From a virus (lineage: Duplodnaviria > Caudoviricetes), in the IMG/VR virus record IMGVR_UViG_3300044998_000632, positions 1 through 52,384 of that record: a stretch of DNA of 52,384 bases. One strand, written 5' to 3'. Positions 36,351 through 51,585 of the stretch are shown here, in pieces. The position numbers were made by a program, and so were the translations under genes. Positions within the stretch are counted from its first letter, which is position 1; every line of letters starts with the position of its first letter. The notes beneath the pieces were generated by a model. It ran no database searches. It was given only the letters and a program-made list of their open reading frames with translations, and was not told where the DNA came from.

Positions 36351-36370
36351 GGGTTCCTCAGTTGATTGAT

Positions 36371-36391
36371 GGGGTCACCGTGACCCCGTGA
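36371..36391. repeat. Palindrome copy 1 (partial left arm)
   Basis: GGGGTCAC-C-GTGACCCCGTGA. Confidence 0.9.
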
Positions 36392-36394
36392 AAG

Positions 36395-36676
36395 CTACTT
36401 CTTCGGTGCGTTGAGCTTCACGCTCCTGTCAGAGTTGCGATGGAAAGACCTGTTCTTCGACGGAGACGTCAGGGACAGGTTGGACCGGGCGTTCGTCCCG
36501 CCCTTGGACAGCGGTACCTTGTGGTCGATGTCCTTGCCGGTGCGGTCCACACCCGCCCGGTCAAACATGTCTCGGGCGCGTTCACGCTCCCGGCGAGCCG
36601 GAGCCTCGTTGCGCTTGAGTTGAAGCTGGTACTCCCGCTTGTACGGGCGATCCCGTTTCGGATTCTTGTACGCCAT
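36395..36676 (-). CDS. HNH endonuclease-like protein
   Basis: GKDIDHKVPLSKGGTN-RSNL...NRS. Confidence 0.8.
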   Translation of the reverse strand: MAYKNPKRDRPYKREYQLQLKRNEAPARRERERARDMFDRAGVDRTGKDIDHKVPLSKGGTNARSNLSLTSPSKNRSFHRNSDRSVKLNAPKK

Positions 36677-36781
36677 AAACGTGCTCCAGGAGGGAGAGCA
36701 ATTTTTGAGCGTCTTCCACCGGGAGCGCAAGCACGGCGTAATCCCTGTACGCCCCGGAGATGGCTTCCTGAAGGCGGCTGA

Positions 36782-37468
36782 TCAGAAGGTCCATGATGGA
36801 TGCGACATGCAGTGGGTGACGGGACAGAACTTGCACAGCCCGCTTGGGTTGGCGGGCCACTCAGACCGTTCACGGGCTCGACGGAGTTGATCCAGCTCTG
36901 CATGCCAGCGCAACCACAGGTGTTTGGCATCCTTGCGATGGAACTCCTGGGTGAAGCTGGCTTCGCTGCCGGGCTTGGTGAACAGCAGCATGGCCGTGAC
37001 GATGTCGACGTCGGGCTCGTGAGAGAACGTCGCCAGCGCGTACACCTCAAGCTGATCCATGTCTGCGTACTTCGGGTTGCCGGTCTTGAAGTCGCCAACC
37101 AGCGCGCGGCGCTTGTCCGCCTGCACGACCATGACGTCTGCGAACGCCTTGAACCAGACATGCGGGTGTCCTGCGTTGCACGCGGTGTAGTCGGACAGCA
37201 GGGACAGATCTCGCTCGGCGTACAGCGTGCCGGGGATGGACCGCAATCCGTCGAGCAAAGGAGTGATGTACTCGAACTCCGGGGGCAGGGGCGCGGTACC
37301 GAGGAGGTACCGCTCGGCTGCTTCGTGCAGCAGCGTGCCGTACGTGGTGTGCTCGCTGGGGCCGTCAACCACGGAGCGGACCTCACGGGTCTCGTAGAAC
37401 CGTTTGGGACAGTTCTTGAATGTCTTCAGGGATGAGAACGACCAGTGAATGGGCGCGCTAGATGACAT
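36782..37468 (-). CDS. PD-(D/E)XK (Cas4/RecB-like) exonuclease
   Basis: WSFSSLKTFKNCP, GT-LH, AD..GDFKTG, QL-VYA and CKFCPV-HC. Confidence 0.85.
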   Translation of the reverse strand: MSSSAPIHWSFSSLKTFKNCPKRFYETREVRSVVDGPSEHTTYGTLLHEAAERYLLGTAPLPPEFEYITPLLDGLRSIPGTLYAERDLSLLSDYTACNAGHPHVWFKAFADVMVVQADKRRALVGDFKTGNPKYADMDQLEVYALATFSHEPDVDIVTAMLLFTKPGSEASFTQEFHRKDAKHLWLRWHAELDQLRRARERSEWPANPSGLCKFCPVTHCMSHPSWTF

Positions 37469-39363
37469 CAGGCTTCTCCGTAACTTGCCCCCGCGCCGAT
37501 GTCGCACTTCAGCGGCATCGCTCCGAGCCACTCGGGCGCGGTGAGCATTGCTTTGCGCCCGAAGTCTACTGCTTCCTCGCGGTCACGTTCCGGCGCGATG
37601 AAAGCGATTTCGTCGTAGGTTGACGTCACGACCTCGTAGCGCTGAGCGATCTTGACCTTCTGCCACATCACGACATCACGCGCGATTGCCTGAATGAGGT
37701 TCTCCGTGAAGAGCCCCGGATGCACAAACACGCGGCGCGTGGCGCGGCGCTGCTTGCGCTCGTAGACGAACGCTGCCTGCGACTCGTCCGACCCCGGGCG
37801 TTTCACCATCTCCACGTGCAGTCCTGGGTAGCGCAAGAACCGACCCGAAGGAAGGCGCACGGTTTTCTCGTCCGCGTCCGACTGCAGCCAATCGCCGCGA
37901 CCGAAATGGAAGGACTGCCCCGTCACCATGCCTTGCAATACCAGTTTCGCGACCTTCCAGAAGTTGGCGATGAACGGGTAGCGAGCGCGGTACGCAGTGA
38001 TCACCTGCTGCGCCTCTTCCGTGGTCAGCATGAGCCCCGCTTCGATCCGCACGTACTCGCGAAAGCGCGCTGCGCCCATCATGAAACCACAGCCGAGCAC
38101 GGCGCTCTTGGCCACCTGTCGCTGCCGGGCGTCAACGGCATCGAGATCCACATGGTAGATGCTCTCGGCGGCGAACTCACGGTACACGTCACGCCCCGCA
38201 GCGAACGCAGCGATGAGGTCGTCCTGCCCTGCGTTCCATGCATTCAAGCGTGCTTCGATCTGCCCGGAGTCTCCCGCGACCACGACGTAACCGGGCGGGG
38301 CACGCAAGGCTTTCTTCAGCACGGGTTCACGCTTGCGCGCCGACAGGTTGAGCACGTTCATGGACATCGTGCCGGTCCCGCGACCGGTGTGCGCTCCGTG
38401 GTAGCGCTGGGGCATCGGCATCAAGCCGCCCATGCGCTTGGCGGTGTCGAGGAACCGATGCGTGCGCGTCAGTTCGATGGTCGACTTGACCCCAAGGCGC
38501 GCGGCCGCGAGCGCGGCAACATCCTCATCGTCGTGTTCCAGCAACTCCTTCATGCCTTGGTCTGACTTCGCGAAGGCGTAGATGAGCTTCTCTGGATGCG
38601 TCGGGCTTGGCTTGGTCGGCGGATCGACGCCGAGTCCACGCAGTAGCTCGGCAAACCGATCCGACGAAGACAGGTCTTCCGATTTGACCCCGAGCGCCGC
38701 CAGCCGCGTCTCGCCCTCGGACTCCAACCGTGCTGCGTACTGCGTCAGCAGGTCTTCATCGAGCACGAGGCGTGGACGGGCCAAGCACTTCGTCAGCAGG
38801 TCCATGATCCTCCACTCAATTGGCGGCACGCCCTCGGCCATCCGCATGAGCAGGTCATAGCATCGGTCAACGTCATTGAGGCAGTACGCTCCGTAGCGCG
38901 CCAGCCCAGCCGCATCGAAATCGATGCGACGCTTGCCCTTGGCGTAAATGACTTCGTCCCCTTTCGGAGGCAGGCCGAAGTGGGTACACAGCGCGGCCAA
39001 GGAACCCCCAGCAAGGTCGGACAGACCGCGCAGGCGCGCAAGCTGCAAGGTACAGATGTACTGCTTGGGCACCAGCCCCAGCCGCCAGATGATGAGCGCG
39101 TCGAACTCGCTCATGTTGTGGCCGGCAGCCGCAAGTTGACTGATCCCCGCATCAGTCAAGCATGCAGCGTACTCCTGCTCCGACGCGAACGAGTACCACT
39201 GCGCAAGGTAGTCGTCGCGCTTGATGCCGACCCCGATGATCTCGAAGCGAGGATCGAAGACGTACTCGATCGCGGACATCCGCGACAGGCTGTACTCATC
39301 GTCGTAGTAGGTCTCGAAGTCAATCGTCAGGATTCCCATTGGTTCCTTCTTTCCTGCGAACAA
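37468..39363 (-). CDS. DNA polymerase family A with 3'-5' exonuclease domain
   Basis: TIDFET, HN-EFD, motif A DSGQIEAR, motif B RQVAKSAVLGCGF, ENLIQAIARD and motif C TYDE. Confidence 0.9.
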   Translation of the reverse strand: MFAGKKEPMGILTIDFETYYDDEYSLSRMSAIEYVFDPRFEIIGVGIKRDDYLAQWYSFASEQEYAACLTDAGISQLAAAGHNMSEFDALIIWRLGLVPKQYICTLQLARLRGLSDLAGGSLAALCTHFGLPPKGDEVIYAKGKRRIDFDAAGLARYGAYCLNDVDRCYDLLMRMAEGVPPIEWRIMDLLTKCLARPRLVLDEDLLTQYAARLESEGETRLAALGVKSEDLSSSDRFAELLRGLGVDPPTKPSPTHPEKLIYAFAKSDQGMKELLEHDDEDVAALAAARLGVKSTIELTRTHRFLDTAKRMGGLMPMPQRYHGAHTGRGTGTMSMNVLNLSARKREPVLKKALRAPPGYVVVAGDSGQIEARLNAWNAGQDDLIAAFAAGRDVYREFAAESIYHVDLDAVDARQRQVAKSAVLGCGFMMGAARFREYVRIEAGLMLTTEEAQQVITAYRARYPFIANFWKVAKLVLQGMVTGQSFHFGRGDWLQSDADEKTVRLPSGRFLRYPGLHVEMVKRPGSDESQAAFVYERKQRRATRRVFVHPGLFTENLIQAIARDVVMWQKVKIAQRYEVVTSTYDEIAFIAPERDREEAVDFGRKAMLTAPEWLGAMPLKCDIGAGASYGEA

Positions 39364-39449
39364 GCTGGACCGTCACGGTCCGTTCACGAAAACTCGCCGA
39401 GGATGTAGTCCCACGGTCCCTCGCCGTGCCGGCGCCGCTTAAGCTGGCG

Positions 39450-39998
39450 TTAGGCCGCTTCAAAATTTTGCCTTGCGGTCGCCAGCGTGATGTCGCCTTT
39501 GCCATTGTGGTACACGCAGCAGTCGTCGGGCCACCCGAGGTCTTCGCTGCCGCTGCCAACTGCAACCGTCGGCTCCTCCCAGCGCTCAATCTCGCGCACA
39601 AGTTTTTCGGCAGCATCTTGGCTTTCGGCCAGCACGTAGCCCGCGCGCACCACCGGCTCGCCCAGGAACGTCGGCGAATCGCTGGCCGATCGGCAGGTGA
39701 TGGAGATGGGCGGTAGGGCGCGCGTGCCATAGATTGCGTTAGGCTCACGAAAACGCAGCGTCCGCTCGCCCGTTCGATCCATCTCCACCAAGCCATTGCG
39801 CAACAGCCACGCAATCACCTTGCTCGGGTCGAAGTAGTAGGTTCGTTCCACGATCCCCGCGCGCTCTATCTCGTTCAGCAGCTCACCGCGAGGAAAGCCG
39901 CGCGGCAATCCGCCCTTTGGCACTGTCAGCACCACGCCGACAGTCCCTGGCTCGGCCAGTGCGCGGACCGCTGTGGCGGCAAGTTCAAGCGGTTTCAT
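39450..39998 (-). CDS. Hypothetical protein
   Basis: ORF on the coding strand of the early region; RBS GGAG upstream. Confidence 0.45.
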   Translation of the reverse strand: MKPLELAATAVRALAEPGTVGVVLTVPKGGLPRGFPRGELLNEIERAGIVERTYYFDPSKVIAWLLRNGLVEMDRTGERTLRFREPNAIYGTRALPPISITCRSASDSPTFLGEPVVRAGYVLAESQDAAEKLVREIERWEEPTVAVGSGSEDLGWPDDCCVYHNGKGDITLATARQNFEAA

Positions 39999-40016
39999 CG
40001 CATCTCCATCGTGAGC

Positions 40017-40322
40017 CTAACTGTCGCTTGCAGCGGACGGCCTTCGGTCGCCGCTGAAGCTGGCGTTGTGCCGCTTCATTGCTTCGTCAACTGCGTCGCG
40101 CAACGTGCGGCCCGTGATCGGCCGGCCGGTCAGCGTGTCATGCCACACCTGCACAAGGTTGTCCGGGTCAGCAACCATGTCCACGAACAAGGCTTTCTCC
40201 GCGAGCCACCGGAACCGCCGTGCGTCGTCGATGCAGTCGCGCAGGATTTGCGCGTGCTCGCCGTGTCCGTCCTGCGCAAGTCTGCGCGCCAACTTCATCA
40301 GCTCGTGGGCGTTGGCGTTCAT
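40017..40322 (-). CDS. Hypothetical phage protein (DARRFRWL motif)
   Basis: D-RR-RWL and LRDAVDEAM motifs are common in small phage early proteins; ATGA coupling. Confidence 0.55.
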   Translation of the reverse strand: MNANAHELMKLARRLAQDGHGEHAQILRDCIDDARRFRWLAEKALFVDMVADPDNLVQVWHDTLTGRPITGRTLRDAVDEAMKRHNASFSGDRRPSAASDS

Positions 40323-40444
40323 CTCCATCCTCCGTTCCCCTTCATCGCGTGCCACATCAACCACGTCAGCACTCCCAGCGCCATCAACGCCGGAATCGCC
40401 GCTATCGCCAGCAGCACGTACAACAGGTTCAATAAGCAGTCCAT
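40319..40444 (-). CDS. 41-aa transmembrane peptide (not in ORF track)
   Basis: MDCLLNLLYVLLAIAAIPALMALGVLTWLMWHAMKGNGGWR, with RBS GAGGTG. Confidence 0.55.
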   Translation of the reverse strand: MDCLLNLLYVLLAIAAIPALMALGVLTWLMWHAMKGNGGWR

Positions 40445-40537
40445 ACGTCACCTCGTCGCTCTGCACGCGAGAGGCGTGCGCCCATGTGGCCAAAACGGAT
40501 CGCGCTGTAAAGCGCATCTTTCCGCCTACCATCTCCG

Positions 40538-40879
40538 TTACTCTCGTTGCAGTGATGCTTCTCGGCACGCGCGGCGGTACTCATCGAGCAGCGCGTGGCC
40601 ATCTTCCCACGTCCCGGGCCGGTCAAGCAGGGCGCACTCCAGCATGATCGCCAGGCGGTGCGCGTAGGCGCTGCCGACCTCGTGAAGGGCGAGGGCTTCG
40701 CGCAGCTCGGCGATCTCTTGCTCGGCTTCCGCAAGGCGATCGTCGTCGCCACGGCATGATGCAAAGCCGCGCGCCACTGCAAGCTCGCGCTCCACGAATC
40801 CGCCGCCGCTGGTCGGACTGCTGCTGCGCACTTCGGCGCATGGGGCCATTACCGGGGGCTGGCGCGAGGTGGCGCTCAT
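40538..40879 (-). CDS. Hypothetical protein
   Basis: ATGA-coupled ORF. Confidence 0.5.
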   Translation of the reverse strand: MSATSRQPPVMAPCAEVRSSSPTSGGGFVERELAVARGFASCRGDDDRLAEAEQEIAELREALALHEVGSAYAHRLAIMLECALLDRPGTWEDGHALLDEYRRACREASLQRE

Positions 40880-41283
40880 GGCTTCGCCTCGCGCAGCGCC
40901 TGCCGCAGGCGTTCAGCCGCCTTCTGGTGCCGCTCTAGCGCGGCCGCCATCGCCGCCTGCGTGTCCAGGCGGTGCTGGCCCCACTGCGCTTTTCGCTCAG
41001 CCAACAGCTCGGCGCTGTCCTCCAGGCAGTACTCCAAGGCTTCCAAGACGGCTTTGAGTTCACCGTCGTCGGCCATGGCAGCGGCAATCGCCGCTTCCAG
41101 GTCGGAGATGGTGTCATGCGAAAGGGTGCGTAACGCCTCGCCGCACTGGCAGCAGTACCTTGCATTGCGCTGCACGTCTGCGCCGCACCGAGGGCAGTTC
41201 ATGCCGCCGTTATCCGTCACGCTCCACCCGCGCTCGGCCAGCACGGCTGCAGCGCGACGGGCACGATCCGTAGGTTCAGTCAT
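40876..41283 (-). CDS. Zinc-ribbon protein
   Basis: CPRCG...YCCQCG. Confidence 0.6.
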   Translation of the reverse strand: MTEPTDRARRAAAVLAERGWSVTDNGGMNCPRCGADVQRNARYCCQCGEALRTLSHDTISDLEAAIAAAMADDGELKAVLEALEYCLEDSAELLAERKAQWGQHRLDTQAAMAAALERHQKAAERLRQALREAKP

Positions 41284-41522
41284 GTTCTGCTCCGCTTCGG
41301 CCACCAATCAGCCCGTTCGCGCCACTGAATCGTGTCCTGCCGCGCATTGGCGGCACGCAACGACGCCCACTGTGCGGCTTCATCGGCCGGGTTGTGAGCG
41401 AAAGCACATACGCTCCATCCACGTTCGCGGCTGTACCACCGCAAGGAGTACGTCCCTACAGGCCACCATCCCTCCGATGGCGGCGGCCCGCTCCGCAGCG
41501 GTCCTTTTCCGATGTCTTTCAT
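41280..41522 (-). CDS. Trp-rich hypothetical protein
   Basis: SGPPPSEGWWP..LRWY..GWS..IQWR, with RBS AAGGAG. Confidence 0.55.
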   Translation of the reverse strand: MKDIGKGPLRSGPPPSEGWWPVGTYSLRWYSRERGWSVCAFAHNPADEAAQWASLRAANARQDTIQWRERADWWPKRSRT

Positions 41523-41527
41523 ATGCC

Positions 41528-41806
41528 CTACTCCTTGCAGTCTTGTGGCGCCATGCGCACGATATTCGGGCCAGCACCGTAGACGTTGACGAGCCGTCCT
41601 TGTCTTTCGATCCGCTTGCTCAGCAGGCCGGCCAGCACCGCCAGTTCCAGAATCGCGGTCACGCTCTGGCGAGCGATGTCGAATTTGATGGTGATGTCCG
41701 CAGACGTCAGTTCTTCGTCCGGGTTCTCGGCAAAGAACCGGCAGACGTGCAGTGGGATACCGCGTGGCACGTACTCCTCGATTGGCTTGATGCGTGGTCT
41801 TGGCAT
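41528..41806 (-). CDS. Winged-helix-like DNA-binding protein
   Basis: FFAENPDEELTSADITIKFDIARQSVTAILELAVLAGLL..VYGAG. Confidence 0.55.
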   Translation of the reverse strand: MPRPRIKPIEEYVPRGIPLHVCRFFAENPDEELTSADITIKFDIARQSVTAILELAVLAGLLSKRIERQGRLVNVYGAGPNIVRMAPQDCKE

Positions 41807-41821
41807 TTTTGGTCAGGTCCC

Positions 41822-42079
41822 CTATAAAACTACGAACGTCATCAGTAGCGCCAGGAACGACGCCACGGCGGCCAAGAAGGCCACTGCCGCCGCGGCCATC
41901 GCCATGTCGACGATGGTCCAAGTGCGTTCGAGCCGCGCTCGCTCGGCCGCAGTCAGTTGCGGCCGAGCCGGACAGACACGGCCCTGCAGGCAGTTGCCAT
42001 TGCACGGTGGGCACTGCAGGGTGTCCAGGTCGCCCGGTGCCGTCTCCATGGCATCAGGGCGGGTGTTGCGCCACGTCAT
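41822..42079 (-). CDS. Small Cys-rich membrane protein
   Basis: CPPCNGNCLQGRVCPAR plus a C-terminal TM segment. Confidence 0.55.
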   Translation of the reverse strand: MTWRNTRPDAMETAPGDLDTLQCPPCNGNCLQGRVCPARPQLTAAERARLERTWTIVDMAMAAAAVAFLAAVASFLALLMTFVVL

Positions 42080-42264
42080 AGCAACGCCTCCGCCCAAGCC
42101 CGACGCGCCTCGTCGGCGGCGCGCTTCAAGCGCTCGCGCTCAAGGCGCTCCAGCGCGCGGCGCTGCTCCTCAAGGCGCCGCATCTGCAGGTCGGTCAAGG
42201 TGCCGAACGGCCATCCGTCCGGGGTTGTGTCGTCGCGAATGCCGTTGGGGCTGTAGCCGGTCAT
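42076..42264 (-). CDS. Hypothetical protein
   Basis: WPFGTLT motif, coiled coil and ATGA coupling. Confidence 0.5.
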   Translation of the reverse strand: MTGYSPNGIRDDTTPDGWPFGTLTDLQMRRLEEQRRALERLERERLKRAADEARRAWAEALL

Positions 42265-42476
42265 ACGGCCTCCTTCCCCGCACGCTGCGACGCCACGGCG
42301 GCAGTCAGGCTGGCGATCAATCGCTCGGCCTGCTCGATCGACAGCATGGCCCGCAGGCCGCCGCCCTCGACGTCCAACGCGATCCACACCTGTCGGTGGC
42401 CTTCGTCCCGGTCGAGGGTGTAGACCAACACCGTCGGGCCGAACTGGGACTCGATTTTCGGGAAGTTGTTGAGCAA
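42261..42476 (-). CDS. Hypothetical protein (probable TTG start)
   Basis: RBS AAAGGAGAG just upstream of TTG at 42476. Confidence 0.45.
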   Translation of the reverse strand: MLNNFPKIESQFGPTVLVYTLDRDEGHRQVWIALDVEGGGLRAMLSIEQAERLIASLTAAVASQRAGKEAV

Positions 42477-42492
42477 GATGACTCTCCTTTGA

Positions 42493-42864
42493 TCAAACCG
42501 CCGGCACAAATCCGGCGTGACGGAATACGGCAATCTTCCGAACTGATCCGTCCGGCTGCGTCTGTTCCTCCGTCTCGCGGACGGAGAACGCAAACAGCGG
42601 TTCGACGCCTCGCTGCCGCAACGCAGCGGCAAGCGGTGCCATCAACCAAGGCGCTCCGCCGATCATCGCGCGCTTGATTCTTACGGCCGCCGCCACCTCC
42701 GCGATCTGCTCGGCGCGGTCGCGGATCGTCTCCGGGCTGGGGAGATCGAAGAACGTCAACAGCGTTTGCAGCTCGGCTTGAGCTTCATCGGACGGGTCAA
42801 TGACCCCCGCAGCCAGTTGTTCTGCGGTTGCGGCGTGTTGGGTGAGGTTGAGGATCCGAATCAT
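42493..42864 (-). CDS. Csx20-like CARF-related protein; candidate viral ring nuclease
   Basis: ILNLTQH-AT-EQ..GV-D..ELQ-L..AMIGG..G-EPLFAFS-R..E..DG..K..F-H-GF parallels the Csx20 motif order as recalled; no search was run. Confidence 0.6.
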   Translation of the reverse strand: MIRILNLTQHAATAEQLAAGVIDPSDEAQAELQTLLTFFDLPSPETIRDRAEQIAEVAAAVRIKRAMIGGAPWLMAPLAAALRQRGVEPLFAFSVRETEEQTQPDGSVRKIAVFRHAGFVPAV

Positions 42865-42898
42865 TCGTCGTTACTTTCTTCTCTCTTAGATTGAGGAA

Positions 42899-42925
42899 AT
42901 CACGGGGTCACCGTGACCCCGTGAT
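42899..42925. repeat. Palindrome copy 2
   Basis: ATCACGGGGTCAC-C-GTGACCCCGTGAT. Confidence 0.95.
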
Positions 42926-42928
42926 AGA

Positions 42929-43213
42929 TTACTTGGCCATGCGACGCTTGATGCTGTCCATCGTTCGGACAGCGTTGGCGATCCGCTCGTCGGGGATGCG
43001 CTTGCTCAAGCGAGTGAGCATGCGGTGGATGCTGAACGCGATGTCCTCCCAGCCCGAGAGCTGGGCTTCGTAGCGGAACTCCGCTTCGAGCTGCTCGCGT
43101 ATCAGCGCCTGCCGGTCCACGAGGAGCTGTGCAATGGCCGCCGCGGCTTCATGGGCCAGCGGGTCGTCTATGCGCAACAAGGTTGCGAGGACCCGGTCAG
43201 GATCGACCGACAT
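42929..43213 (-). CDS. Hypothetical helical protein
   Basis: ORF tiles after the stop at 43218; the start choice is uncertain. Confidence 0.5.
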   Translation of the reverse strand: MSVDPDRVLATLLRIDDPLAHEAAAAIAQLLVDRQALIREQLEAEFRYEAQLSGWEDIAFSIHRMLTRLSKRIPDERIANAVRTMDSIKRRMAK

Positions 43214-43217
43214 CGCA

Positions 43218-43472
43218 CTACTCGGATGGGTCAAGGGCAACCGATTGACGCCCGACAGCGCGGGCGGGAGCGGGTGCCTTGGGGGTTTCGGCGACTTGCT
43301 TGGCTTCTTGCGCGACATTGGCTCCTTCCTGATGATCTTCGTAGGGGTTGATGCCGAGCAGCCGGCAAACGTGCTCGCACGCGCCGCCGATCTCCCCGGT
43401 CGGGGGTACGTCGTCGCGGTCGAGCCCCAACGCGTTGCGAATGCCGTTGTACACGGCTTGCATCTTCTGCAT
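43218..43472 (-). CDS. Hypothetical protein
   Basis: TAATG coupling and RBS CAGGAG. Confidence 0.5.
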   Translation of the reverse strand: MQKMQAVYNGIRNALGLDRDDVPPTGEIGGACEHVCRLLGINPYEDHQEGANVAQEAKQVAETPKAPAPARAVGRQSVALDPSE

Positions 43473-43702
43473 TACGTTCTCCTGAACAGTCCAGCCAGCC
43501 AGTTGATGAACCGCGGCACCGCAGGCTGGCGATTGCGGCGCGGCAGGAGCAGCGCACGCTGCACCGCGTGTTCGTCTGCATCCATGGGGGCGCACCGCGC
43601 GGCGAACGTCCGATCGTCGTTGCGACGCTCGTACCACGCGGGTTCGAACCTACACCCGATGCGCACCGGCACCAAGGGCTTCACTTCTCCGTGAGCAGGC
43701 AT
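43472..43702 (-). CDS. Hypothetical protein
   Basis: RBS AAGGA; tiles with its neighbours. Confidence 0.5.
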   Translation of the reverse strand: MPAHGEVKPLVPVRIGCRFEPAWYERRNDDRTFAARCAPMDADEHAVQRALLLPRRNRQPAVPRFINWLAGLFRRT

Positions 43703-44016: not shown

Positions 44017-44603
44017 GCGGCCCTCCAGATGTAGAAGCCCGTACCCTGCGGCCCACGTTCGACATGTCGCTGGACGATCCGTGCGTCCGGACCGGCAACC
44101 TCCCGCAATGTCGCTTGCAACCCAGCGAGCCCGGTACCACTGACGCGAGGCTTTCCAACGAACACTGCGTCACCTACCTGCATGCATGCTGCAATCTCCC
44201 TCAACTGTTTGGAAAAGACGTTGCTGCGCGTGGCGGGCGGGATCGGGAAGTTCTTGATAAGCGTGAGGCTTGTCGGGCGGCCCTGCTTCGGCGGGGGTGT
44301 GGCCGGCACGTTGCTGGACTGCCGGCTCAACGCGGCTTCCTGCAACGTCTCGTTCGCGGCGTAGAAGTAGCCGTACCGGGTCGTAGTCCCCGGGATCCTG
44401 AGGTGTACTCGTCCGATCACTCCGCGCTGAAGCGCGGATTGCAGCACGACGTGCGGGTTGTAATTCGGCGGCAGGCTCAGCGCCTTCCACTCCGGCGAGG
44501 CCGCGATCTCCGACCACGGGATGGGCATTGAACGGTCCCGCCGCGACAGCACGGTCAGGATGGCGTTCTCGACGAGGGCGGCGGTGCGAATAGGTTGGTT
44601 CAT
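44013..44603 (-). CDS. Hypothetical, possibly DNA-binding protein
   Basis: IKNFPIPP..MQVGDAVFV..G-YIWR C-terminal domain; RBS GGAG. Confidence 0.55.
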   Translation of the reverse strand: MNQPIRTAALVENAILTVLSRRDRSMPIPWSEIAASPEWKALSLPPNYNPHVVLQSALQRGVIGRVHLRIPGTTTRYGYFYAANETLQEAALSRQSSNVPATPPPKQGRPTSLTLIKNFPIPPATRSNVFSKQLREIAACMQVGDAVFVGKPRVSGTGLAGLQATLREVAGPDARIVQRHVERGPQGTGFYIWRAA

Positions 44604-44622
44604 ATTGGCTGACTCCAGTAGG

Positions 44623-44964
44623 TCAGGGATTGGCGATATAGAACACGCGAGTTGCAACGATCCGGTCCGACGCGTCGCGTTCCGCGCTGGCTCCGTGCGA
44701 GACGATGACGTCGTCGCGGTGGATGTCGTGGGCCTGCATCGCCTCGGCAACGACAGGGTCTACGAGGTACAGCGTGTTCGCCTCCGGTGGAGGGAGTTCC
44801 GGACGGGCGTAATCCCGCTTGGCAATGGTGGCGTCTCCGATGAACTTGCCCGTGGGAGCAAGTTGTCGGTCACCGATAAGCCGCCACCCAGAAGGGCGGA
44901 TCGTCTCCAACTTCTCGCCATTGCGAAAGGCAATGGTGATGCCGGTTAGATTGATGATGTTCAT
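44623..44964 (-). CDS. Crn4/Unk01-like protein lacking the NLTPH histidine
   Basis: IINLT..I..I-PSG...Y..LPPP..NTLYLV..VA-A..R-D..V....RD...I pattern as recalled for this family; reads NLTGI instead of NLTPH. Confidence 0.5.
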   Translation of the reverse strand: MNIINLTGITIAFRNGEKLETIRPSGWRLIGDRQLAPTGKFIGDATIAKRDYARPELPPPEANTLYLVDPVVAEAMQAHDIHRDDVIVSHGASAERDASDRIVATRVFYIANP

Positions 44965-44965
44965 G

Positions 44966-45985
44966 TCAGTGTGCTTTCATGATGTTGCGAAGTTCCTGGA
45001 CCTCGGCGCTACCAGTTTCCTCGTCCGCGCCGTCGAGCGGGTCCTGCGCATTGTCGGCGCTGAGCGTATACCATTCGAGCAGGTCATCGAAGTCGCACAT
45101 GCCGGCTTCCAGGTACTCAATCGTCGCCGTCAACTCCACGAGTGCCTCGTCCGCAGACAGGTGTAACACCGGCAAGATGTCGAGCAATTCTTCCTCGGTG
45201 GCGTAGACCTGCAAGAAGCGACGCGCGGACGCATCCCCGTGCCGGCTGTAGTCCTCCACGAGGTCGAACAACTCCACGAGCTTCGCTGCCAGCTCCGTGT
45301 GGGCGCGGAACGAGTCACCCACGGCGTCGACGTCGGTCACGACGTTTTTCTTAGGCGGCGTCCATGACGGGAAGCCGGGTTCGTCGCTCCAATCGTGGAA
45401 GCTCATCCGACCCGAGCCGTACACACCCCACAGATGCGGAGTCCATGCGTAGGTGTTGCTGAACCAGCAACCGGGGAACATATCCGTCGTGACGCCAGCG
45501 CTCTCGTTGACCAACAGCAAGCCGTGCTCGGCGTGGATGAAGATGAAACGGTTCTGGCGGCCGATGTGTTCGCCGATCATCTGCCGGACCAACGGCTCAT
45601 GCACCACCGGTGCGACCGCCACTCCGTAGGTGCGGGCGTAGATCTGTGTGTCGGACTCCTTGGTGGTGTCGCCGCCAATCGACAGCACGCCGTTGTGCAT
45701 GAGGTAGAGCTTGCCGTCGTGAATGGCGTAGGGATGCACGCGCTCCAGGTCGACCGCGCCGTGCGTGCGCATGCGCCAGTGCAGTGCGTACTCGACCCCC
45801 CGCGGAGCGTGCTCCAGCCACCACAGACGGGCGGCGGCCGCATCGGCCGGCAGCGTCTTCTCGACGATGATCGTGCCGTCCTTCACGTAAGCGATGCCGA
45901 GACCGTCGGGGTTTTTGCGGAAGCAGTCCTCGAACCAGTCGGCAGGAAAGACGGTATCGGGGGCGACTTTGACGAGCAAACACAT
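44966..45985 (-). CDS. Class-II (Ntn) glutamine amidotransferase, copy 2
   Basis: Cys2 (MCLLV), NPDGLG, HWRMRTHG, VHPY, MHNGVL, SDT and WFSN. Confidence 0.85.
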   Translation of the reverse strand: MCLLVKVAPDTVFPADWFEDCFRKNPDGLGIAYVKDGTIIVEKTLPADAAAARLWWLEHAPRGVEYALHWRMRTHGAVDLERVHPYAIHDGKLYLMHNGVLSIGGDTTKESDTQIYARTYGVAVAPVVHEPLVRQMIGEHIGRQNRFIFIHAEHGLLLVNESAGVTTDMFPGCWFSNTYAWTPHLWGVYGSGRMSFHDWSDEPGFPSWTPPKKNVVTDVDAVGDSFRAHTELAAKLVELFDLVEDYSRHGDASARRFLQVYATEEELLDILPVLHLSADEALVELTATIEYLEAGMCDFDDLLEWYTLSADNAQDPLDGADEETGSAEVQELRNIMKAH

Positions 45986-46009
45986 GATCGATTCTCCTTC
46001 TTGGTTGAG

Positions 46010-47509
46010 TCAGTTGCAGAATTGGAACTCGCGCCGAGCGTTGTAGGCGAGTTTGGCGAGGTCGGGAACTACTGGTACGAGTCGCGACTGCACGGGGCGC
46101 GCAGTCAACAGCCGCCGCAGTGCGGCCGTGCAAGTGCGGTCCATGTCCATGACGTGCGAGACGAACTGCGACATCGTGGGCTCGGACAGCAGTACGTCGG
46201 TGGAGCGGACGCGGAAGAAATCCACCAGCGCATGAATGAACTGGAACTGAGCCAGTGCCCCGATGAACCGCGGCTGCGCGATGGGGCGGCGCCACTCATA
46301 AGTGGCGGCGCCTCGCTCCAGCCGCGAAAGGTTGACTTCATAGTACCGGGTCAGGTTCGACGTGAGGCTGCCGAGACCCGCGCGCCTGACCAGCTCCCCC
46401 CACGGAAGCGAGAACTGTGGCGGCATCTTGTGGCAGTAGCGGGTGTTGGGACGCCCTGCCACAACGGCGTGTACCTCGGTATTACGAGCAAGGAACGCGG
46501 CCAGCAACGCGGCATACATCAGGTCCGGGATGCGACCGTACTCGCCGATGTGAACGTGCATGCCGGCACGGCGCGACCTTCGCCATGCGATTCGCGGCGC
46601 GTACACCCGACGCATGGCGTCCACCACGTCCTCGTATGCACCGAAGCCGGTGACGACCTCGAATCCTTCATTGATGGACCCATCGCGCTCGATATTGATC
46701 TTCTCCTTCGCGTTCATCTTCACCCAGGTGAGCGCCACGTCCCGGGACAGTGCTCGCGATGGCAGAAGCTCCAACTCGACGCCGAACGTAGGCCCCTTGT
46801 AGTTGGGGTCGCGCAGCCCCACGAGATCGCAATAGCCGGACCGTTGGGTTGAATGGTACTCGTTGCACCGCAGGGTGTTGAGCATCCAAGTCACCCTATC
46901 AGGCGCTCGCGGGAAGTGGGAGATCGCGAGCGGGTCCAGGTCACGCACCGTGACGCACTCGCCATCGGATGACACCATAACTGCAGTCGCGCCGCCTGCC
47001 TGCCTGCGAATCCACTGGCGCTTTTGGCCCGGCATTTCTATGGGCACGAACTCCTTCAACATGCATCGCACACACTTGGCGTGCCTCACGCCGCTCGTGT
47101 CGCAGTGCAAATGTCCGTCGGCGTACTCCAGATGTCCGCACGCGGCACGGGAGTAGGAGCGGCTGAACACGTGGTACGCGGCGCCGGAAAACGCCATGAT
47201 GTCGTCCTCGGACGCCGCGGAGGAGTCCAGCCGCGGCCGCGTCAAAAGCGCTGCCACGGATTCAATATCCGGCATTCCGGGCCGTGAGAGCCGAACCAGA
47301 TGTGCCCGCATCGCCGCGGTGTACGCCCGTACGTTGCGCAGCTTACGGAGCTCGCTGAACGACCGGTAGGTGCCGTCGCGGCTCGTGCGCTCATTGGCGC
47401 GCATCTGCTGTCGAATGCACTCCCGGGCCAACCCCACGCCACCGACGGCGAACGTGTGCATCAGAGGCGTCCGGGGATGCCGGCTCGGAGAACTGTAGTT
47501 GAATGGCAT
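46010..47509 (-). CDS. Putative amidoligase (COOH-NH2 ligase, GS/GCS2-like fold), copy 2
   Basis: EYHS, FGVELE, ERDGSI..GFEVVT, AGMHVHI, RYYEVN and TYEWR. Confidence 0.8.
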   Translation of the reverse strand: MPFNYSSPSRHPRTPLMHTFAVGGVGLARECIRQQMRANERTSRDGTYRSFSELRKLRNVRAYTAAMRAHLVRLSRPGMPDIESVAALLTRPRLDSSAASEDDIMAFSGAAYHVFSRSYSRAACGHLEYADGHLHCDTSGVRHAKCVRCMLKEFVPIEMPGQKRQWIRRQAGGATAVMVSSDGECVTVRDLDPLAISHFPRAPDRVTWMLNTLRCNEYHSTQRSGYCDLVGLRDPNYKGPTFGVELELLPSRALSRDVALTWVKMNAKEKINIERDGSINEGFEVVTGFGAYEDVVDAMRRVYAPRIAWRRSRRAGMHVHIGEYGRIPDLMYAALLAAFLARNTEVHAVVAGRPNTRYCHKMPPQFSLPWGELVRRAGLGSLTSNLTRYYEVNLSRLERGAATYEWRRPIAQPRFIGALAQFQFIHALVDFFRVRSTDVLLSEPTMSQFVSHVMDMDRTCTAALRRLLTARPVQSRLVPVVPDLAKLAYNARREFQFCN

Positions 47510-47535
47510 AGGTTGCTCCTTGTAGGTTCAATTGA

Positions 47536-48723
47536 TCAAACACCGGCCGGGGTGTCGGCCACGAGGCACAGATCATGCACCCGCTTCTCTGCGGCCTCCA
47601 GTTCACTTGCGAGCGCGACTGCGCTCGTGAACATGTTCCACTTGCGCTGAACACCGCACAGGGCTTCGTGGAAATCCAGGATCGCTTTCTTGCGCTTGTC
47701 CGTCGTCATGCTCTGAAGGCTGTCGGTGAAGGCGATCACATCCTGCGGTAACGCGCCACTCCACCCCACTGTGGCCAGCAGCAACGTGGACACCGTCCAC
47801 AGATGAGATGGTGCGGTCGTCATCGGCAGCAACTCGACATGGCGCATCAGTGTCTTGACCGCAGAGGCCAGGTCGGCAGGCAGGTGACTCGCCCAGGTGT
47901 AGTTGCGCGGGATGTAGATCATCTCCTTTCCGGTAAGCCCGCGAAACTCCAAGATGCGCAGATCACCGAACTGCGAAGAGTGCGAAAGCTCCCCGAAGGG
48001 CGCAGTCGAAGGCGCAGTCGAAGGCGCAGTCGAAGGCGCAGTCGAAGGCGCAGTCGAAGGCGCAGTCGAAGGCGCAGTCGAAGGCGCAGTCGAAGGCGCA
48101 GTCGGACGCGGGAATGACGTGTATCCCCACGTCGGCCGCGCAAACTCGGGCAGCGAAGGCCACAACGTGTGGTCGGTCACCGCGTAGTTGTTGGACAGCA
48201 GCATGCCGTCGCACTCGAACCAATCCTTGCGGTTGAGCACGTGGAAATGCTTGCGCCCGGCATCGAGGAGCAGGATGCGGTTCTCGCCGATCGCCCGCTC
48301 GATGAACTTGATGACCCCGCTGCACTCCAGCGCATCGGGGCGCATCTGGTCGAGCAAGTCGGCCAGCAGGCGCGTATCACTGGAACCGCGCCTGAGGTCG
48401 GCATCCACCAGCCGGGACGGCAAGGTTCCGTTGTGCATCATGGCGAATCGCGTGCCGAACGCGAAGGGATGCACATTGGCGAGGCTGCGCGACCCCCTCG
48501 TCACGCGGCGGAAGTGCAGCGCATAGGGCGTGTCGCTGGGCCGCCACCGCTCGATGAACTTCACCACGTTGGAGGGCTTCGTCGCCAGCGTGCGAGCCGT
48601 CACCGGCGTGCCGTCGTCGCTGGCAAACATGATCCCCGTGCCGTCGGGGTTGTACTTCATGGCGTCGGTGATCTGCTCTGGAGTGAGCCTCCTGCCGGCG
48701 GGGATGTGGATGATCAAGCACAT
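47536..48723 (-). CDS. Class-II (Ntn) glutamine amidotransferase, copy 1
   Basis: MCLII, NPDGTG, HFRRVTRG, NVHPF, MHNG, SDT and LSN. Confidence 0.85.
   Translation of the reverse strand: MCLIIHIPAGRRLTPEQITDAMKYNPDGTGIMFASDDGTPVTARTLATKPSNVVKFIERWRPSDTPYALHFRRVTRGSRSLANVHPFAFGTRFAMMHNGTLPSRLVDADLRRGSSDTRLLADLLDQMRPDALECSGVIKFIERAIGENRILLLDAGRKHFHVLNRKDWFECDGMLLSNNYAVTDHTLWPSLPEFARPTWGYTSFPRPTAPSTAPSTAPSTAPSTAPSTAPSTAPSTAPSTAPFGELSHSSQFGDLRILEFRGLTGKEMIYIPRNYTWASHLPADLASAVKTLMRHVELLPMTTAPSHLWTVSTLLLATVGWSGALPQDVIAFTDSLQSMTTDKRKKAILDFHEALCGVQRKWNMFTSAVALASELEAAEKRVHDLCLVADTPAGV
47999..48104. repeat. 12-bp perfect tandem repeat (GGCGCAGTCGAA, ~9 units) encoding (TAPS)n
   Basis: Seen directly in the sequence. 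Confidence 0.95.
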
Positions 48724-48765
48724 GTTCACTTTCCTTTCGTTGGTGAGTTGGTTGATGGAACGGTT

Positions 48766-48790
48766 TCACGGGGTCACGGTGACCCCGTGA
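48766..48790. repeat. Palindrome copy 3
   Basis: TCACGGGGTCAC-G-GTGACCCCGTGA. Confidence 0.95.
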
Positions 48791-48793
48791 CTG

Positions 48794-50452
48794 CTACGCC
48801 CTGGCATACGCCTGCTGGGCTTGCGCCTTGCGCATCTCGGCATTGCGCAACTCACGCAGGCGGGGGGCGAACGCCAGCGACTCGGGATGGTCGACGATGT
48901 AGTGTCGCAGCGTCTTCGTGTTGCGCCGCAGGTACGGATCATCAACCAGCGCGTTAGCGAACCCGCTCGCCGTGAGCGGGTTGCACGCGACGGGGTCGCA
49001 ATACTTGGTCAGCGCCCACACCAGTTCAAGTCGCGCCTTGATGCGCCGCGACCGTCCCGTGCCGGCGAAGATGCGCCACTCGATCGACCCATCACGGCGG
49101 ACATTGATCGCGTTGTAGCGATCGACCGGGCTGCCGAACTGCCGCTTCCAGGCGTCCTTGAGCACCTTGCGCGCCGCGTGCCCGCACAGCGGGTTGCGTG
49201 CATACGAGTTGAACCCGCGGCCGAACAGCGGGCGCAGGAAGGGATAGTTCTCCCCGGCGCAGACGGCTCCGAAGAGCCGCTCAATGTGCGCCTCAGGCAG
49301 GCTGCTCGTGCTGATGTGCAACCCGCAATGGTCGGTGTTGTATCTGTAGTCCCGGACGATGCCGCCGAGCCTGTCCGCCCAGTTACGCACCGTGCCAAGC
49401 GTGGACCACCCGGTGATGATCTCTACTCCGTTGTGCTCGTCCAGCGAGGCGTCCTGTTCGAGTACGACGACCGAAGACAAGTCGTCCGAGTCCATGACAT
49501 CGTCCACGAACGAACTGCGCCCCTCGACGTTGAGTTCGCACTCGAAACCGAGGGTGAGCGTATCCACTTGCAGCGGGTCGTCGTAGTGCGACGCGTGACG
49601 CCGGACGGCCAGTTGCCGCTGACGGCTCCCGCTGTGGTACTCGTACAACTGCGGGTGCCCCGTGCCGTCCTCGTCCTCGTCTCCGTCCTCGTCTCCGTCC
49701 TCGTCTCCGTCGGGGTAGATGTCTTCGAGGGAGTCGAGGGCGGGGTCGAAGTAGCTGTCCGAGCGGACGTCGTACCGCAGCGCGTTCATCGCGAACTCTC
49801 GCGACGCGATCGTGGTGCCGTAGAACTCGATCGTGCGCTCCCCGATCAACGAACTCACCTGCCACACGGACTGGCTCTGCCACCGCGTGACGGGAAGCCC
49901 GCCGATGCAGCCCACTGCGACGAGACACGCGCCGTACTTCGGGATCACCCGGAGTTCGACCTCGCACGTCACGTACTTGTCCCCGAACGCAGCGAGCAGG
50001 CGAGAGCCCAGGCAGGACTGGGGAGTGATGAACCGCGTCTTCAGGAGGTGGTTCACTGCCGGCTGGCATTCCGACAGGTCGAGATCGAATCGGTTGCTCC
50101 CCGCCCAACGACCGATGTCCCGGAACTCCCGCCGGTAGCCGATCGGCCGCGTCCGGGCAGGGGTGTTGACCGTGTCGGTCGCGATGTCGCGGCCGACTGC
50201 GAGCATGTTGCTCGCGAAGTTCACGACGCGGCCGACTGCGAGCATGTTGCTCGCGAAGTTCACGACGCGGCACATGCGGTCGAAACTTTTCCAGTCGCCA
50301 TCCAGCGTGACGACGTACGGTGCGGCGGTCTCGACCACCCGGACGGTGGGGTCGCGGCGCACGAGCACCGCCGCGGCCTGATGGAAGTAGTTGAGCACGC
50401 GAGCGTGCAGCCACGAGCACACGCCCGAGTTGAAGTTGAAAGTGATACGCAT
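48794..50452 (-). CDS. Putative amidoligase, copy 1
   Basis: EYHS, LGFECE, EQDASL..GVEIIT, CGLHIS, RYNAIN and SIEWRIF. A (GGAAA)n purine tract precedes ATG 50452. Confidence 0.8.
   Translation of the reverse strand: MRITFNFNSGVCSWLHARVLNYFHQAAAVLVRRDPTVRVVETAAPYVVTLDGDWKSFDRMCRVVNFASNMLAVGRVVNFASNMLAVGRDIATDTVNTPARTRPIGYRREFRDIGRWAGSNRFDLDLSECQPAVNHLLKTRFITPQSCLGSRLLAAFGDKYVTCEVELRVIPKYGACLVAVGCIGGLPVTRWQSQSVWQVSSLIGERTIEFYGTTIASREFAMNALRYDVRSDSYFDPALDSLEDIYPDGDEDGDEDGDEDEDGTGHPQLYEYHSGSRQRQLAVRRHASHYDDPLQVDTLTLGFECELNVEGRSSFVDDVMDSDDLSSVVVLEQDASLDEHNGVEIITGWSTLGTVRNWADRLGGIVRDYRYNTDHCGLHISTSSLPEAHIERLFGAVCAGENYPFLRPLFGRGFNSYARNPLCGHAARKVLKDAWKRQFGSPVDRYNAINVRRDGSIEWRIFAGTGRSRRIKARLELVWALTKYCDPVACNPLTASGFANALVDDPYLRRNTKTLRHYIVDHPESLAFAPRLRELRNAEMRKAQAQQAYARA
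50188..50270. repeat. Exact 39-bp in-frame tandem duplication (RVVNFASNMLAVG x2)
   Basis: Seen directly in the sequence. Confidence 0.95.
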
Positions 50453-50493
50453 GATTCTTCCTTTCCTTTCCTTTCCTTGGTTGGAACCGCGTG

Positions 50494-50518
50494 TCACGGG
50501 GTCACGGTGACCCCGTGA
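50494..50518. repeat. Palindrome copy 4
   Basis: TCACGGGGTCAC-G-GTGACCCCGTGA; supplies the TGA stop of ORF 50502-50714. Confidence 0.95.
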
Positions 50519-50714
50519 TCATGGCGAGGAACGCCGGGAACGCACGCTCGGCGACGAGCGCGAGCGTGAAGACGACGGCGACGGCGATTGCGAGCGCCAG
50601 CATGACCCACTCCGCCGGGTGCTCGTTGCCACCAGTTTCCGCGCCCTCCAGGTGCGAGTACACCTCGCACGCGCCGGGATCGCCGGCGAAGTTGGGGTCA
50701 GCGTGCTCGTCCAT
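50502..50714 (-). CDS. Small membrane protein
   Basis: RBS GGAGG/CAGGA and a C-terminal hydrophobic segment. Confidence 0.5.
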   Translation of the reverse strand: MDEHADPNFAGDPGACEVYSHLEGAETGGNEHPAEWVMLALAIAVAVVFTLALVAERAFPAFLAMITGSP

Positions 50715-50913
50715 TCCTGGCCACCTCCTTGGTGGGTTGCTTGGTGGCGAAGACGCGGGCGATGCGCTCGCGCTCGGTGTCGACGGCACGGGGCACGAGA
50801 GAGAAGCGGTCGCCCTCCCGCGTCGTGCGCTCGACCTCTTGACGCACCATCTCGGCGATGGCGCGCATCCTGCGCTCGTGGTCGGGAATCAGGTGGCTCC
50901 AGATCAACGTCAT
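50698..50913 (-). CDS. Hypothetical early protein
   Basis: RBS AAAGGAAG; its leader is nearly identical to that of the gene starting at 48723. Confidence 0.55.
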   Translation of the reverse strand: MTLIWSHLIPDHERRMRAIAEMVRQEVERTTREGDRFSLVPRAVDTERERIARVFATKQPTKEVARNGRAR

Positions 50914-50947
50914 GATCTTCCTTTCGTTGGTTGGTGAGTTGAGGGAT

Positions 50948-50974
50948 TTCACGGGGTCACGGTGACCCCGTGAA
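50948..50974. repeat. Palindrome copy 5
   Basis: TTCACGGGGTCAC-G-GTGACCCCGTGAA. Confidence 0.95.
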
Positions 50975-51570
50975 TCGACGCAGAAAATGCAGCGGTGCGT
51001 CGGGTATAGCGTGCGTGATACACGACATACCCGGCGCACCGTAGCTACCGGGATGCTTGCCACTTACCCTGTTAGGGCCACACGTAGGTTGCCGCGTCGG
51101 TTTGAGTATGCGCCTGAGCGCGAAAATACCGTCTTGGTTTCCATAGTAGGTATGCAAGTCTTATGGGGTTGAAATAAATCGCCATGGACAGCCCAGTTCA
51201 ATCCATGCGTCACCCTTGTCTCGTCGGTGAGCCTACGCCGCCATTGCTATCGTGAGTCGTCGCCAGTCCATCCCCTCGTGTCTTGGGTACGACTGGGCAG
51301 GTCACGTAAGCGGTCATGGGGGCTCTTACCCCGCACCCTGAGCGTGTCACTCACATGGGAAGCGACCTTCCACCAGCCTTCACTGCGCATGTGTTGGTAC
51401 GTGGTGCGTCGCTGCATGCTTGCCATTACGGCAGGTGCGCTTGCTCGCATATGCACGAAGCGTAGGTTAGGTACTCGGTTTCGTCCGATTCACGGGGTCA
51501 CGGTGACCCCGTGAAATCCTGCCACGAGGGGGGCAGGTACTACGCAATCTGCTTGCGATATCGACTGGAT
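50975..51570 (-). ncRNA. Candidate long structured non-coding RNA / 5' leader
   Basis: No credible ORF, many hairpins, a long-range CCTACGC/GCGTAGG pair, and a position downstream of promoter + boxA. Confidence 0.45.
51489..51515. repeat. Palindrome copy 6
   Basis: TTCACGGGGTCAC-G-GTGACCCCGTGAA. Confidence 0.95.
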
Positions 51571-51582
51571 TGTTAAAGAGCG
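51571..51582 (-). promoter_or_regulatory. boxA antitermination element
   Basis: The - strand reads CGCTCTTTAACA, matching the lambdoid/rrn boxA consensus. Confidence 0.8.
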
Positions 51583-51585
51583 GCG

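Follow-up and report, generated by a model that had tools for sequence, protein, structure and literature searches.

The virus record IMGVR_UViG_3300044998_000632 (Caudoviricetes; 52,384 nt, analysed over its full length and referred to here as the window) carries six dispersed copies of a 25-nt palindrome, TCACGGGGTCAC-N-GTGACCCCGTGA, five of them perfect and one with 2 mismatches. Our tentative interpretation, to which we give a little less than an even chance, is that these palindromes are transcribed intercistronic hairpins in an early operon that would be read by the host RNA polymerase under the protection of boxA, and that they serve as RNA punctuation and, as a by-product, as junctions between gene cassettes. 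The window is a whole, linear IMG/VR record with an estimated completeness of 83% (CheckV). According to composition-based calling of open reading frames (ORFs), its plus strand arm (1-28747) is structural, with genes for a major head protein, a tail fibre, an ejection protein and a 2495-aa virion protein with an SLT domain, and its minus strand arm (28935-52384) is devoted to early functions and replication, with genes for PolA, a PD-(D/E)XK nuclease, an HNH protein, an SNF2 helicase and a DUF927 primase-helicase. The features of this second arm on which the argument is built are listed in the order in which they would be transcribed.

51618..51646, minus strand: sigma-70-type promoter TTGACA-17-TATAAT, 12/12 match to the consensus, pointing leftward into the early arm.
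51587..51609, minus strand: 10-bp hairpin with which the predicted leader begins (5' end), directly ahead of boxA.
51568..51582, minus strand: boxA-like 15-mer CGCTCTTTAACAATC, left unpaired in the predicted fold, at about nt 30-45 of the transcript expected from this promoter.
51490..51514: palindrome copy 1, perfect, part of the leader and separated by 53 nt from the boxA 15-mer upstream; RNA hairpin of -22 kcal/mol.
50974..51489, minus strand: 516-nt spacer between copies 1 and 2, no convincing ORF.
50949..50973: palindrome copy 2, perfect; the ATG (50913) of a 71-aa gene follows after 35 nt.
50494..50518: palindrome copy 3, perfect, with the TGA stop codon of a 70-aa membrane-like gene inside it; 41 nt to the ATG (50452) of a 552-aa gene.
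48766..48790: palindrome copy 4, perfect, 3 nt past the stop of the 552-aa gene; 42 nt to the ATG (48723) of a glutamine-amidotransferase (GATase)-like gene.
42900..42924: palindrome copy 5, perfect, with the opposite central base, 4 nt past a TAA stop; 35 nt to the ATG of a 123-aa gene.
36367..36391: palindrome copy 6, perfect except for 2 mismatches towards the outside of one arm, 3 nt past the stop of the HNH gene; 16 nt to the next ATG.

The whole window was searched with the 25-nt pattern, allowing up to 3 mismatches, and the six matches obtained compare with none in 100 shuffles. All six lie in the minus strand arm, and positions 1-36366, including the whole structural arm, are free of them. 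An initial annotation, made from the sequence alone, had described six dispersed copies and none in the structural arm, and both statements hold. The 17-nt core GGGGTCAC-N-GTGACCCC is perfect in every copy, and the 11 matches to the 12-nt half-site (two in each of five copies and one in the sixth) all fall inside known copies, with none standing alone. Alignment of the six sites showed that the repeat is essentially the palindrome itself, with a weak (T)CAAC(C/T) a few bases downstream.

The placement of the copies relative to genes also agreed with what had been annotated. A stop codon is found inside or abutting (0-4 nt) four of the six copies: it lies within the copy at 50494, 3 nt from those at 48766 and 36367 and 4 nt from that at 42900. 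Five copies are followed by an ATG at 16-42 nt (35, 41, 42, 35 and 16 nt for copies 2 to 6), while the 516 nt behind copy 1 (51490) hold no convincing ORF. On the plus strand, C stands at the centre of the copies at 36367 and 42900, and G at that of the four copies towards the right end, as had been noted. The leaders behind the palindromes had been described as alike and rich in pyrimidines and TTGG; similar leaders are indeed present but, because the genes here lie on the minus strand, they are purine/CCAA-rich on the coding strand, where they are C/A-rich, poor in G and carry AAGGA-type Shine-Dalgarno motifs. In the leader of the 552-aa gene (50453-50493, minus strand), a run of AAGGA repeats (CCAACCAAGGAAAGGAAAGGAAAGGAAGAATC) forms several Shine-Dalgarno motifs in tandem.

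In the fold of the perfect copies, a stem of 11 bp closes a 3-nt loop (-20 to -22 kcal/mol), and the degenerate copy 6 reaches only -12.2 kcal/mol. The palindromes are the only strong hairpins of the early arm, and they form stable intercistronic stem-loops between the upstream stop and the downstream Shine-Dalgarno motif or start. No T run follows any of the six copies on either strand; the earlier argument that the missing U-tract speaks against classical terminators therefore stands, and intrinsic terminators were rejected in spite of the G+C-rich stem. Terminator-like matches in the window as a whole did not exceed the shuffle level. No copy has a promoter scoring at least 9/12 beside it.

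The promoter at 51618-51646 is the only site in 52 kb that scores at least 10/12, the scans of the remainder of the window having given 9/12 sites only. All six palindromes lie downstream of it; the nearest, copy 1, starts 103 nt past the -10 element, and no half-site overlaps the promoter. The 12-mer core of the boxA occurs once in the window, compared with 0 in 100 shuffles, and the full 15-mer is identical to one in the early leader of phage T7 (positions 812-826 of the T7 record). There it lies between the host promoter A3 (750) and gene 0.3 (925), just before a hairpin-forming stretch, which we take to be the RNase III site R0.3; the T7 record itself carries no such annotation. The E. coli rrn boxA-spacer is given as ugcucuuuaacaauuua and the lambda boxA as cgcucuua (PMC2724277; the former in its Table 1), and in the rrn leaders described there the boxB hairpin occupies the position that the 10-bp 5' hairpin has in the window. 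A search of five bacterial genomes with the boxA 12-mer gave one match in Pseudomonas, one in a Rhodocyclaceae genome and none in the other three, which may be incomplete; these matches are too few to point to a host.

The leader (51480-51612, minus strand) is strongly folded (z = -5.64) and consists of the 5' hairpin, the unpaired boxA, two small hairpins and palindrome 1. In the 516-nt spacer behind it the structure is not significant (z = -1.47), and no tRNA or Rfam match was found. Palindromes 1 and 2, which flank the spacer, pair with each other in the minimum free energy fold; a duplex of 25-27 bp is formed only when two copies pair in this way. If the promoter is correctly called, the spacer would be the first sequence to be transcribed after the leader.

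The perfect promoter and the T7-identical boxA hint at a host transcription apparatus of the proteobacterial type. Because a single promoter, the T7-identical boxA and a structured leader precede the hairpins, the early arm looks like a T7-style operon, transcribed by the host polymerase, protected by boxA and provided with hairpins at its junctions. In such an operon, transcription would start at the single consensus promoter (51646-51618), and the rrn/T7-type boxA, if it functions in the host of this phage, would recruit host Nus factors. The modified polymerase would then resist premature, mainly Rho-dependent, termination across about 23 kb, including the untranslated C/A-rich, G-poor intergenic leaders. 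At six junctions the RNA would form a G+C-rich hairpin of 11-12 bp, behind a stop and 16-42 nt before the next ribosome-binding site. These hairpins may define processed or stabilised mRNA segments, similar to the RNase III sites of the T7 early region; a 3' hairpin would protect the upstream cistron, and the downstream, unstructured translation-initiation region would be uncoupled from that cistron. Since the junction unit is the same everywhere, it would also present a homology patch at which early-gene cassettes could be duplicated, lost or exchanged, as with the promoter-early stem-loops (PeSLs) of T4-type phages, and recombination of cassettes at the junctions would in turn keep the palindrome copies identical.

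Among the functions that the initial annotation had offered, RNA-processing or stabilising hairpins fit the promoter, the T7-type boxA, the intercistronic position and the stability best; that it is the RNA rather than the DNA that acts, and that cleavage or stabilisation occurs at all, is presumed. This preference is based on the location of the palindromes behind stops in intercistronic gaps, the T7-like leader, the stable stems, the existence of separate terminators and the order of promoter and palindrome in relatives, as described in the following.

Forty viral contigs with PolA relatives (22-40% identity) were examined over about 10 kb on each side of PolA, and recurrent palindromes were judged against 10 shuffles. 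Analogous units, clearly above the shuffle level, were observed in four contigs. The palindrome is TCCCTAC-N-GTAGGGA in L042, GTTACCGT-N-ACGGTAAC in L048 and TTRGAACCT-S-AGGTTCYAA in both L059 (7 copies) and L067 (10 copies); the remaining loci had no recurrent palindrome within this range. The context of stop, palindrome, C/A-rich leader and ATG seen in the window is repeated in L042, L059, L067 and part of L048. In L059 and L067 the leaders contain long CAAC/CCCA repeats, and most copies have no obvious Shine-Dalgarno motif. One palindrome of L042 is preceded, at about 35 nt, by a TTGACA-16-TACAAT promoter, giving the order promoter, palindrome, ribosome-binding site. In addition, an (A)TCAAC(C/T) or CAAC-rich leader motif a few nt past the palindromes is common to the window, L042, L048 and the contig L005 described below, and persists although the palindrome sequences differ between these phages.

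The comparison of L067 with L059 bears on the earlier suggestion that the palindromes bound exchangeable gene cassettes. The two contigs are 77-79% identical over about 14 kb of replication genes, followed by short homologous blocks, four ends of which lie at, or no more than about 50 nt from, palindrome units, and the small genes between the units differ. Two units with about 75 nt in common, flanks included, enclose a 1.04-kb insertion in L067 (18705-19744); one of the two has a doubly compensatory core (GAACCT/AGGTTC changed to GAAAAT/ATTTTC, i.e. GAAAAT-G-ATTTTC). The suggestion thus gained indirect support from homology breaks at analogous units; no recombinase was found among the ORFs scanned, and no rearranged contigs were observed at the sites of this phage.

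Outside the window, among 185,579 species genomes (one genome per species), 104 stretches matched the 18-base core, and the 80 of these that were listed are all single sites apart from one locus (L138), where two core copies encode the repeated GVTVTP peptide of a tandem Ig-like gene. To judge from the matches listed, the motif was thus absent from host genomes as a multi-copy intergenic repeat, and a common repetitive extragenic palindromic (REP) element of the host, which the initial annotation had named among the findings that would refute its proposal, was rejected. Metagenome contigs gave two single matches with unrelated flanks, and 31 viral contigs matched the 16-base core in one copy each. 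On the results of these scans, a chance origin was also rejected.

The 22-base form was found in one other viral contig, L005, an IMG/VR contig of 7.5 kb (1-7475) with the same G+C content as the window (0.64). It carries a 27-nt palindrome, identical to copy 1 over 31 of 31 nt, and does not otherwise overlap the window. Weak Pfam matches below threshold point to a terminase large subunit and a portal gene, both of which are absent from the window. The palindrome lies in the 5' untranslated region of a leftward 216-aa gene, 83 nt before the ATG, and this gene ends in a canonical terminator with a 12-bp stem and a run of seven T (U-tract). A divergent control region contains three 31-nt direct repeats and a TTGACA-17-CAGAAT promoter. 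L005 is probably a missing segment of this phage or part of a sister phage, and would add a seventh copy. The order promoter, palindrome, ribosome-binding site is likely here too, although a promoter searched for at this place was not found. Canonical U-tract terminators also occur elsewhere in the L067 contig, and the terminator of the 216-aa gene shows that, to judge from these sequences, such terminators form a class separate from the palindromes in this lineage.

Several observations weigh against reading the palindromes as RNA hairpins. Symmetry of the stem is perfect across the dyad centre and five copies have the identical sequence, neither of which a hairpin alone would require; at 11-12 bp the stem is shorter than classical RNase III substrates and has no internal loop as in T7; and the palindrome occupies only 6 of about 16 early-arm intergenic gaps of at least 19 nt. 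Covariation among the 17 copies of L059 and L067 is weak (3 pairs with double changes, equalled in 42 of 500 shuffles), and in 8 of the 17 an A·C mismatch falls on the sense strand. All 30 copies with a central base have G or C there, in both orientations (window 6, L005 1, L042 3, L048 5, and 15 of the 17 copies in L059 and L067, the other 2 being without a central base), a pattern predicted by a double-stranded DNA site for a symmetric dimer. Nor was a boxA found in the examined parts of the relatives, apart from a near-match in L057, which would count against the proposed mechanism as well.

To these must be added Rhizobium phage RHph_TM3_14A (MN988472.1; L180/L183/L184), in which TTACC-N5/6-GGTAA occurs 34 times in 60.9 kb, compared with 0.07 expected; of these sites, 22 belong to the early/middle arm and 10 to the structural arm, and about half are at gene ends. 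The phage record has no annotation for this motif, and no literature search aimed at it was made. A looser form (0-10-nt spacer), compared with 42 kb of the annotated record, gave 25 sites, 17 of them inside annotated coding sequences; of these 17, 4 are within 10 nt of the end of the coding sequence. Because the loops vary, the stems are fixed and many sites lie inside coding sequences, this pattern appears to suit a DNA-binding dimer better than an RNA hairpin. The motif may or may not represent the same phenomenon as the palindromes of the window.

That the palindromes are double-stranded DNA sites for a phage-encoded dimeric regulator, whose binding would stop or modulate elongation or else organise the early arm, is the main rival reading; it is unlikely but retains a substantial chance. 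Perfect dyad symmetry, identical copies and a central pair that is G:C throughout, in one orientation or the other, in the window as in its relatives, are all in its favour, as are the conserved half-sites of RHph_TM3_14A with their fixed spacing of 5-6 bp, variable spacer sequence and frequent intragenic position, and the presence in the arm of a gene for a small protein with a weak MarR-type match; lineage-specific palindromes would be expected if they co-evolved with a phage protein. The initial annotation had proposed two such proteins, and neither gained support as the owner of an operator. The putative winged helix-turn-helix (HTH) protein (41528-41806) matched MarR_2 with 20.2 bits, below the cutoff of 27, the supposed HTH protein at 31938-32180 had no family match, and neither is shared with the palindrome-bearing relatives. 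As no site or half-site overlaps the sole recognisable promoter, repression would have to act by roadblock. A length of 25 bp exceeds a typical dimer operator, the gene set looks virulent, with no integrase/repressor module found in a record that is 83% complete, and neither the strict placement behind stops nor the compensatory double change in L067 is predicted by a DNA site. DNA sites for recombination or mobility, as integron-attC-like or REP-like hairpins spread by insertion through a dedicated enzyme, are very unlikely. Both orientations occur, in contiguous blocks, the cassette differences between L067 and L059 are bounded by units, an identical 31-nt copy exists in the otherwise non-overlapping L005, and the HNH gene stops 3 nt away from the degenerate copy; its product could be the enzyme, unless this is encoded in the 17% of the genome that the record lacks. 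However, the 31 minus-arm ORFs scanned (33016-33309 was left out) contained no tyrosine or serine recombinase and no HUH or RAYT-type enzyme, the motif was not multi-copy in any genome or other contig found, and homologous recombination of the ordinary kind between the repeated junction units suffices to account for this pattern. Assembled (Logan) contigs of sequencing runs pass colinearly through 36367, 42900, 48766, 50494 and 50949, one contig gives way to the next at 51487-51515 (copy 1), and no palindrome end is among the 15 of 30 contig joints that were listed; this speaks weakly, if at all, against such sites, since assembled contigs cannot show rare rearrangements and colinearity is no evidence either way.

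The two remaining alternatives treat the palindromes as transcription signals. Attenuators or pause sites that create temporal classes, either without a U-tract or dependent on Rho with the C/A-rich leaders as rut-like elements, are decidedly unlikely; read-through would be provided by the boxA/Nus-modified polymerase, possibly with an N-like protein of the phage. The boxA in the leader fits this scheme, as does the succession of G+C-rich hairpins and C/A-rich, G-poor leaders in the window and its relatives, and the first gene after the leader encodes an arginine-rich protein of 71 aa. The T4-type PeSL stem-loops are described as terminating transcription in reporters (PMC2839356). Against attenuation, no copy has a U-tract, and the canonical U-tract terminators of L005 and L067 form a separate class. 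No promoter follows the palindromes, so that efficient termination would silence the replication genes, and only copy 1 is near a boxA, at a distance of 53 nt that differs from a lambda nut site; no match to an N-like protein family was obtained. Hardly any chance is given to hairpin promoters for a virion-carried RNA polymerase, of the kind used by phage N4, with the 2495-aa protein as the source of the enzyme. The odd-centred palindrome would give a 3-nt loop, the copies cluster at the genome end before the early genes, and the gene of the giant protein closes the structural arm. This protein, however, showed an SLT domain and likeness to LPD39/LPD1/MuF_C rather than to a polymerase and had no polymerase match in PDB, the arm already has at its head a perfect promoter of the host type together with boxA, and the palindromes occur in both orientations, yet all genes point in one direction.

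A further possibility, rather unlikely as it stands, is that each phage of the PolA–SNF2–primase clade carries a private palindrome that is read by a co-evolving phage factor, the unit being a system for cassette capture and expression. The factor could be a sequence-specific hairpin endoribonuclease, an antiterminator, a DNA roadblock or a junction protein. The early accessory genes of these virulent phages would then form a promoterless, integron-like array behind one boxA-protected promoter.

Of the gene labels assigned previously to the early arm, 'GATase' agrees with two paralogous class-II glutamine-amidotransferase-like genes (47536-48723 and 44966-45985, minus strand; PF13230/PF13522, both phrog_25883). 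The 499-aa protein encoded between them had no family match. The label 'amidoligase' was not confirmed by Pfam, PHROGs or NCBIfam. For the 123-aa protein directly downstream of copy 5 (42493-42864, minus strand), the label 'Csx20-like' depends on a weak match to CRISPR-associated Csx20 (NF040559, E = 4.8e-6), the 27 bits of which remain below the cutoff of 70. No relative of the 552-aa protein was found among viral or metagenome contigs. The window contains no phage RNA polymerase gene, and no tRNA or Rfam family was detected in it or in the leader region.

No close relative of the window was present in the collections searched, and no near-identical phage among those in GenBank. The closest named phages by PolA, at an identity of only about 32-35%, are RHph_TM3_14A, which has the same gene order as the window, and Pseudomonas phages KPP25/phiR18. 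The DNA of the window occurs in sequencing runs labelled as hot-spring or microbial-mat metagenomes, two of which may be its own source. In the 2495-aa virion protein (21260-28747, plus strand), the SLT transglycosylase domain is N-terminal, the middle part resembles the polyvalent-protein domains LPD39, LPD1 and MuF_C, and the C-terminal part matches giant phage proteins (phrog_10089 and others). The first ORF (99-2072, plus strand, 657 aa) contains 13-mers at 726, 792, 870, 1068, 1332 and 1542 (stretch 700-1560), a spacing that suggests a repeat whose period is some multiple of 66 nt. The right end of the window and the end of L005 both enter short GGCCC-rich tandem repeats, where assemblies often break.

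If the palindromes are indeed transcribed hairpins, the early arm would be a compact natural design for a long modular operon driven by one host promoter, in which a T7/rrn-type boxA protects elongation while hairpin junctions of identical sequence divide the RNA and insulate the cistrons. The junctions may explain the gain and loss of orphan early genes, such as the GATase-like genes and the gene with the weak Csx20 match. The genome-specific palindromes across the clade raise the question of whether a private reader protein exists or whether recombination alone keeps the copies identical.

Several known systems resemble the palindromes in part. The stoperators of mycobacteriophage L5 and the conserved inverted repeats of Streptomyces phage phiC31 are many near-identical short intergenic sites near stops and starts in one arm. 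L5 stoperators are asymmetric and biased in orientation, whereas the palindromes of the window are symmetric and occur in both orientations, and temperate actinophages have a cognate repressor and a temperate life style, neither of which was found in the window. In an operator network a site overlaps or flanks the regulated promoter, an arrangement that the window lacks. REP elements are likewise extragenic palindromes behind stops that can stabilise upstream mRNA; they are multi-copy in a bacterial chromosome, unlike the phage-specific motif, which gave single sites among the genome stretches found. Integron attC sites, which are served by an IntI-type tyrosine recombinase, were rejected, as no recombinase family match was obtained and a perfect 25-nt palindrome differs from their long, imperfect form with extrahelical bases. 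The rrn leaders described in PMC2724277 share with the window a boxA of the CUUUA type and an ACAAU spacer past the promoter, with hairpins on both sides. In lambda, each nut site consists of boxA followed by boxB and is served by an N-like protein; the window has one boxA and five palindrome copies without one, and sites of the lambda type were rejected given the 53 nt between boxA and copy 1 and the missing N-like family match.

The early region of T7 is similar in layout. Its RNase III sites, named R0.3 to R1.3, are cleaved by RNase III. Like the window, it has strong sigma-70 promoter(s), the identical boxA 15-mer, a hairpin before the first gene and more hairpins between early cistrons, with sites that are alike within the genome; in both, the sites lie between cistrons on what is, or in the window would be, a host-polymerase early transcript behind promoter(s) and boxA. 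The T7 sites are longer and irregular, an internal loop interrupting a duplex of about two helical turns, and are only partially similar to each other, whereas the window has a perfect stem of 11-12 bp in five identical copies. The T4-type PeSL unit, as described in PMC2839356 and PMC4122927, consists of an upstream stop, a stem-loop with G and C tracts, a Shine-Dalgarno motif and a start, and is, like the units of the window, a repeated intergenic element concentrated among variable early genes. In these accounts, as in L059 and L067, indels and replacements between relatives are bounded by units. PeSL cassettes are also known from excised mini-circles. Each PeSL is described as having its own sigma-70 promoter, in contrast to the single promoter for the whole arm in the window, where the repeat is also limited to 25 nt. 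If the proposed interpretation is correct, the PeSL idea would be extended from T4-type myoviruses to an unrelated, podovirus-like clade with promoterless units.

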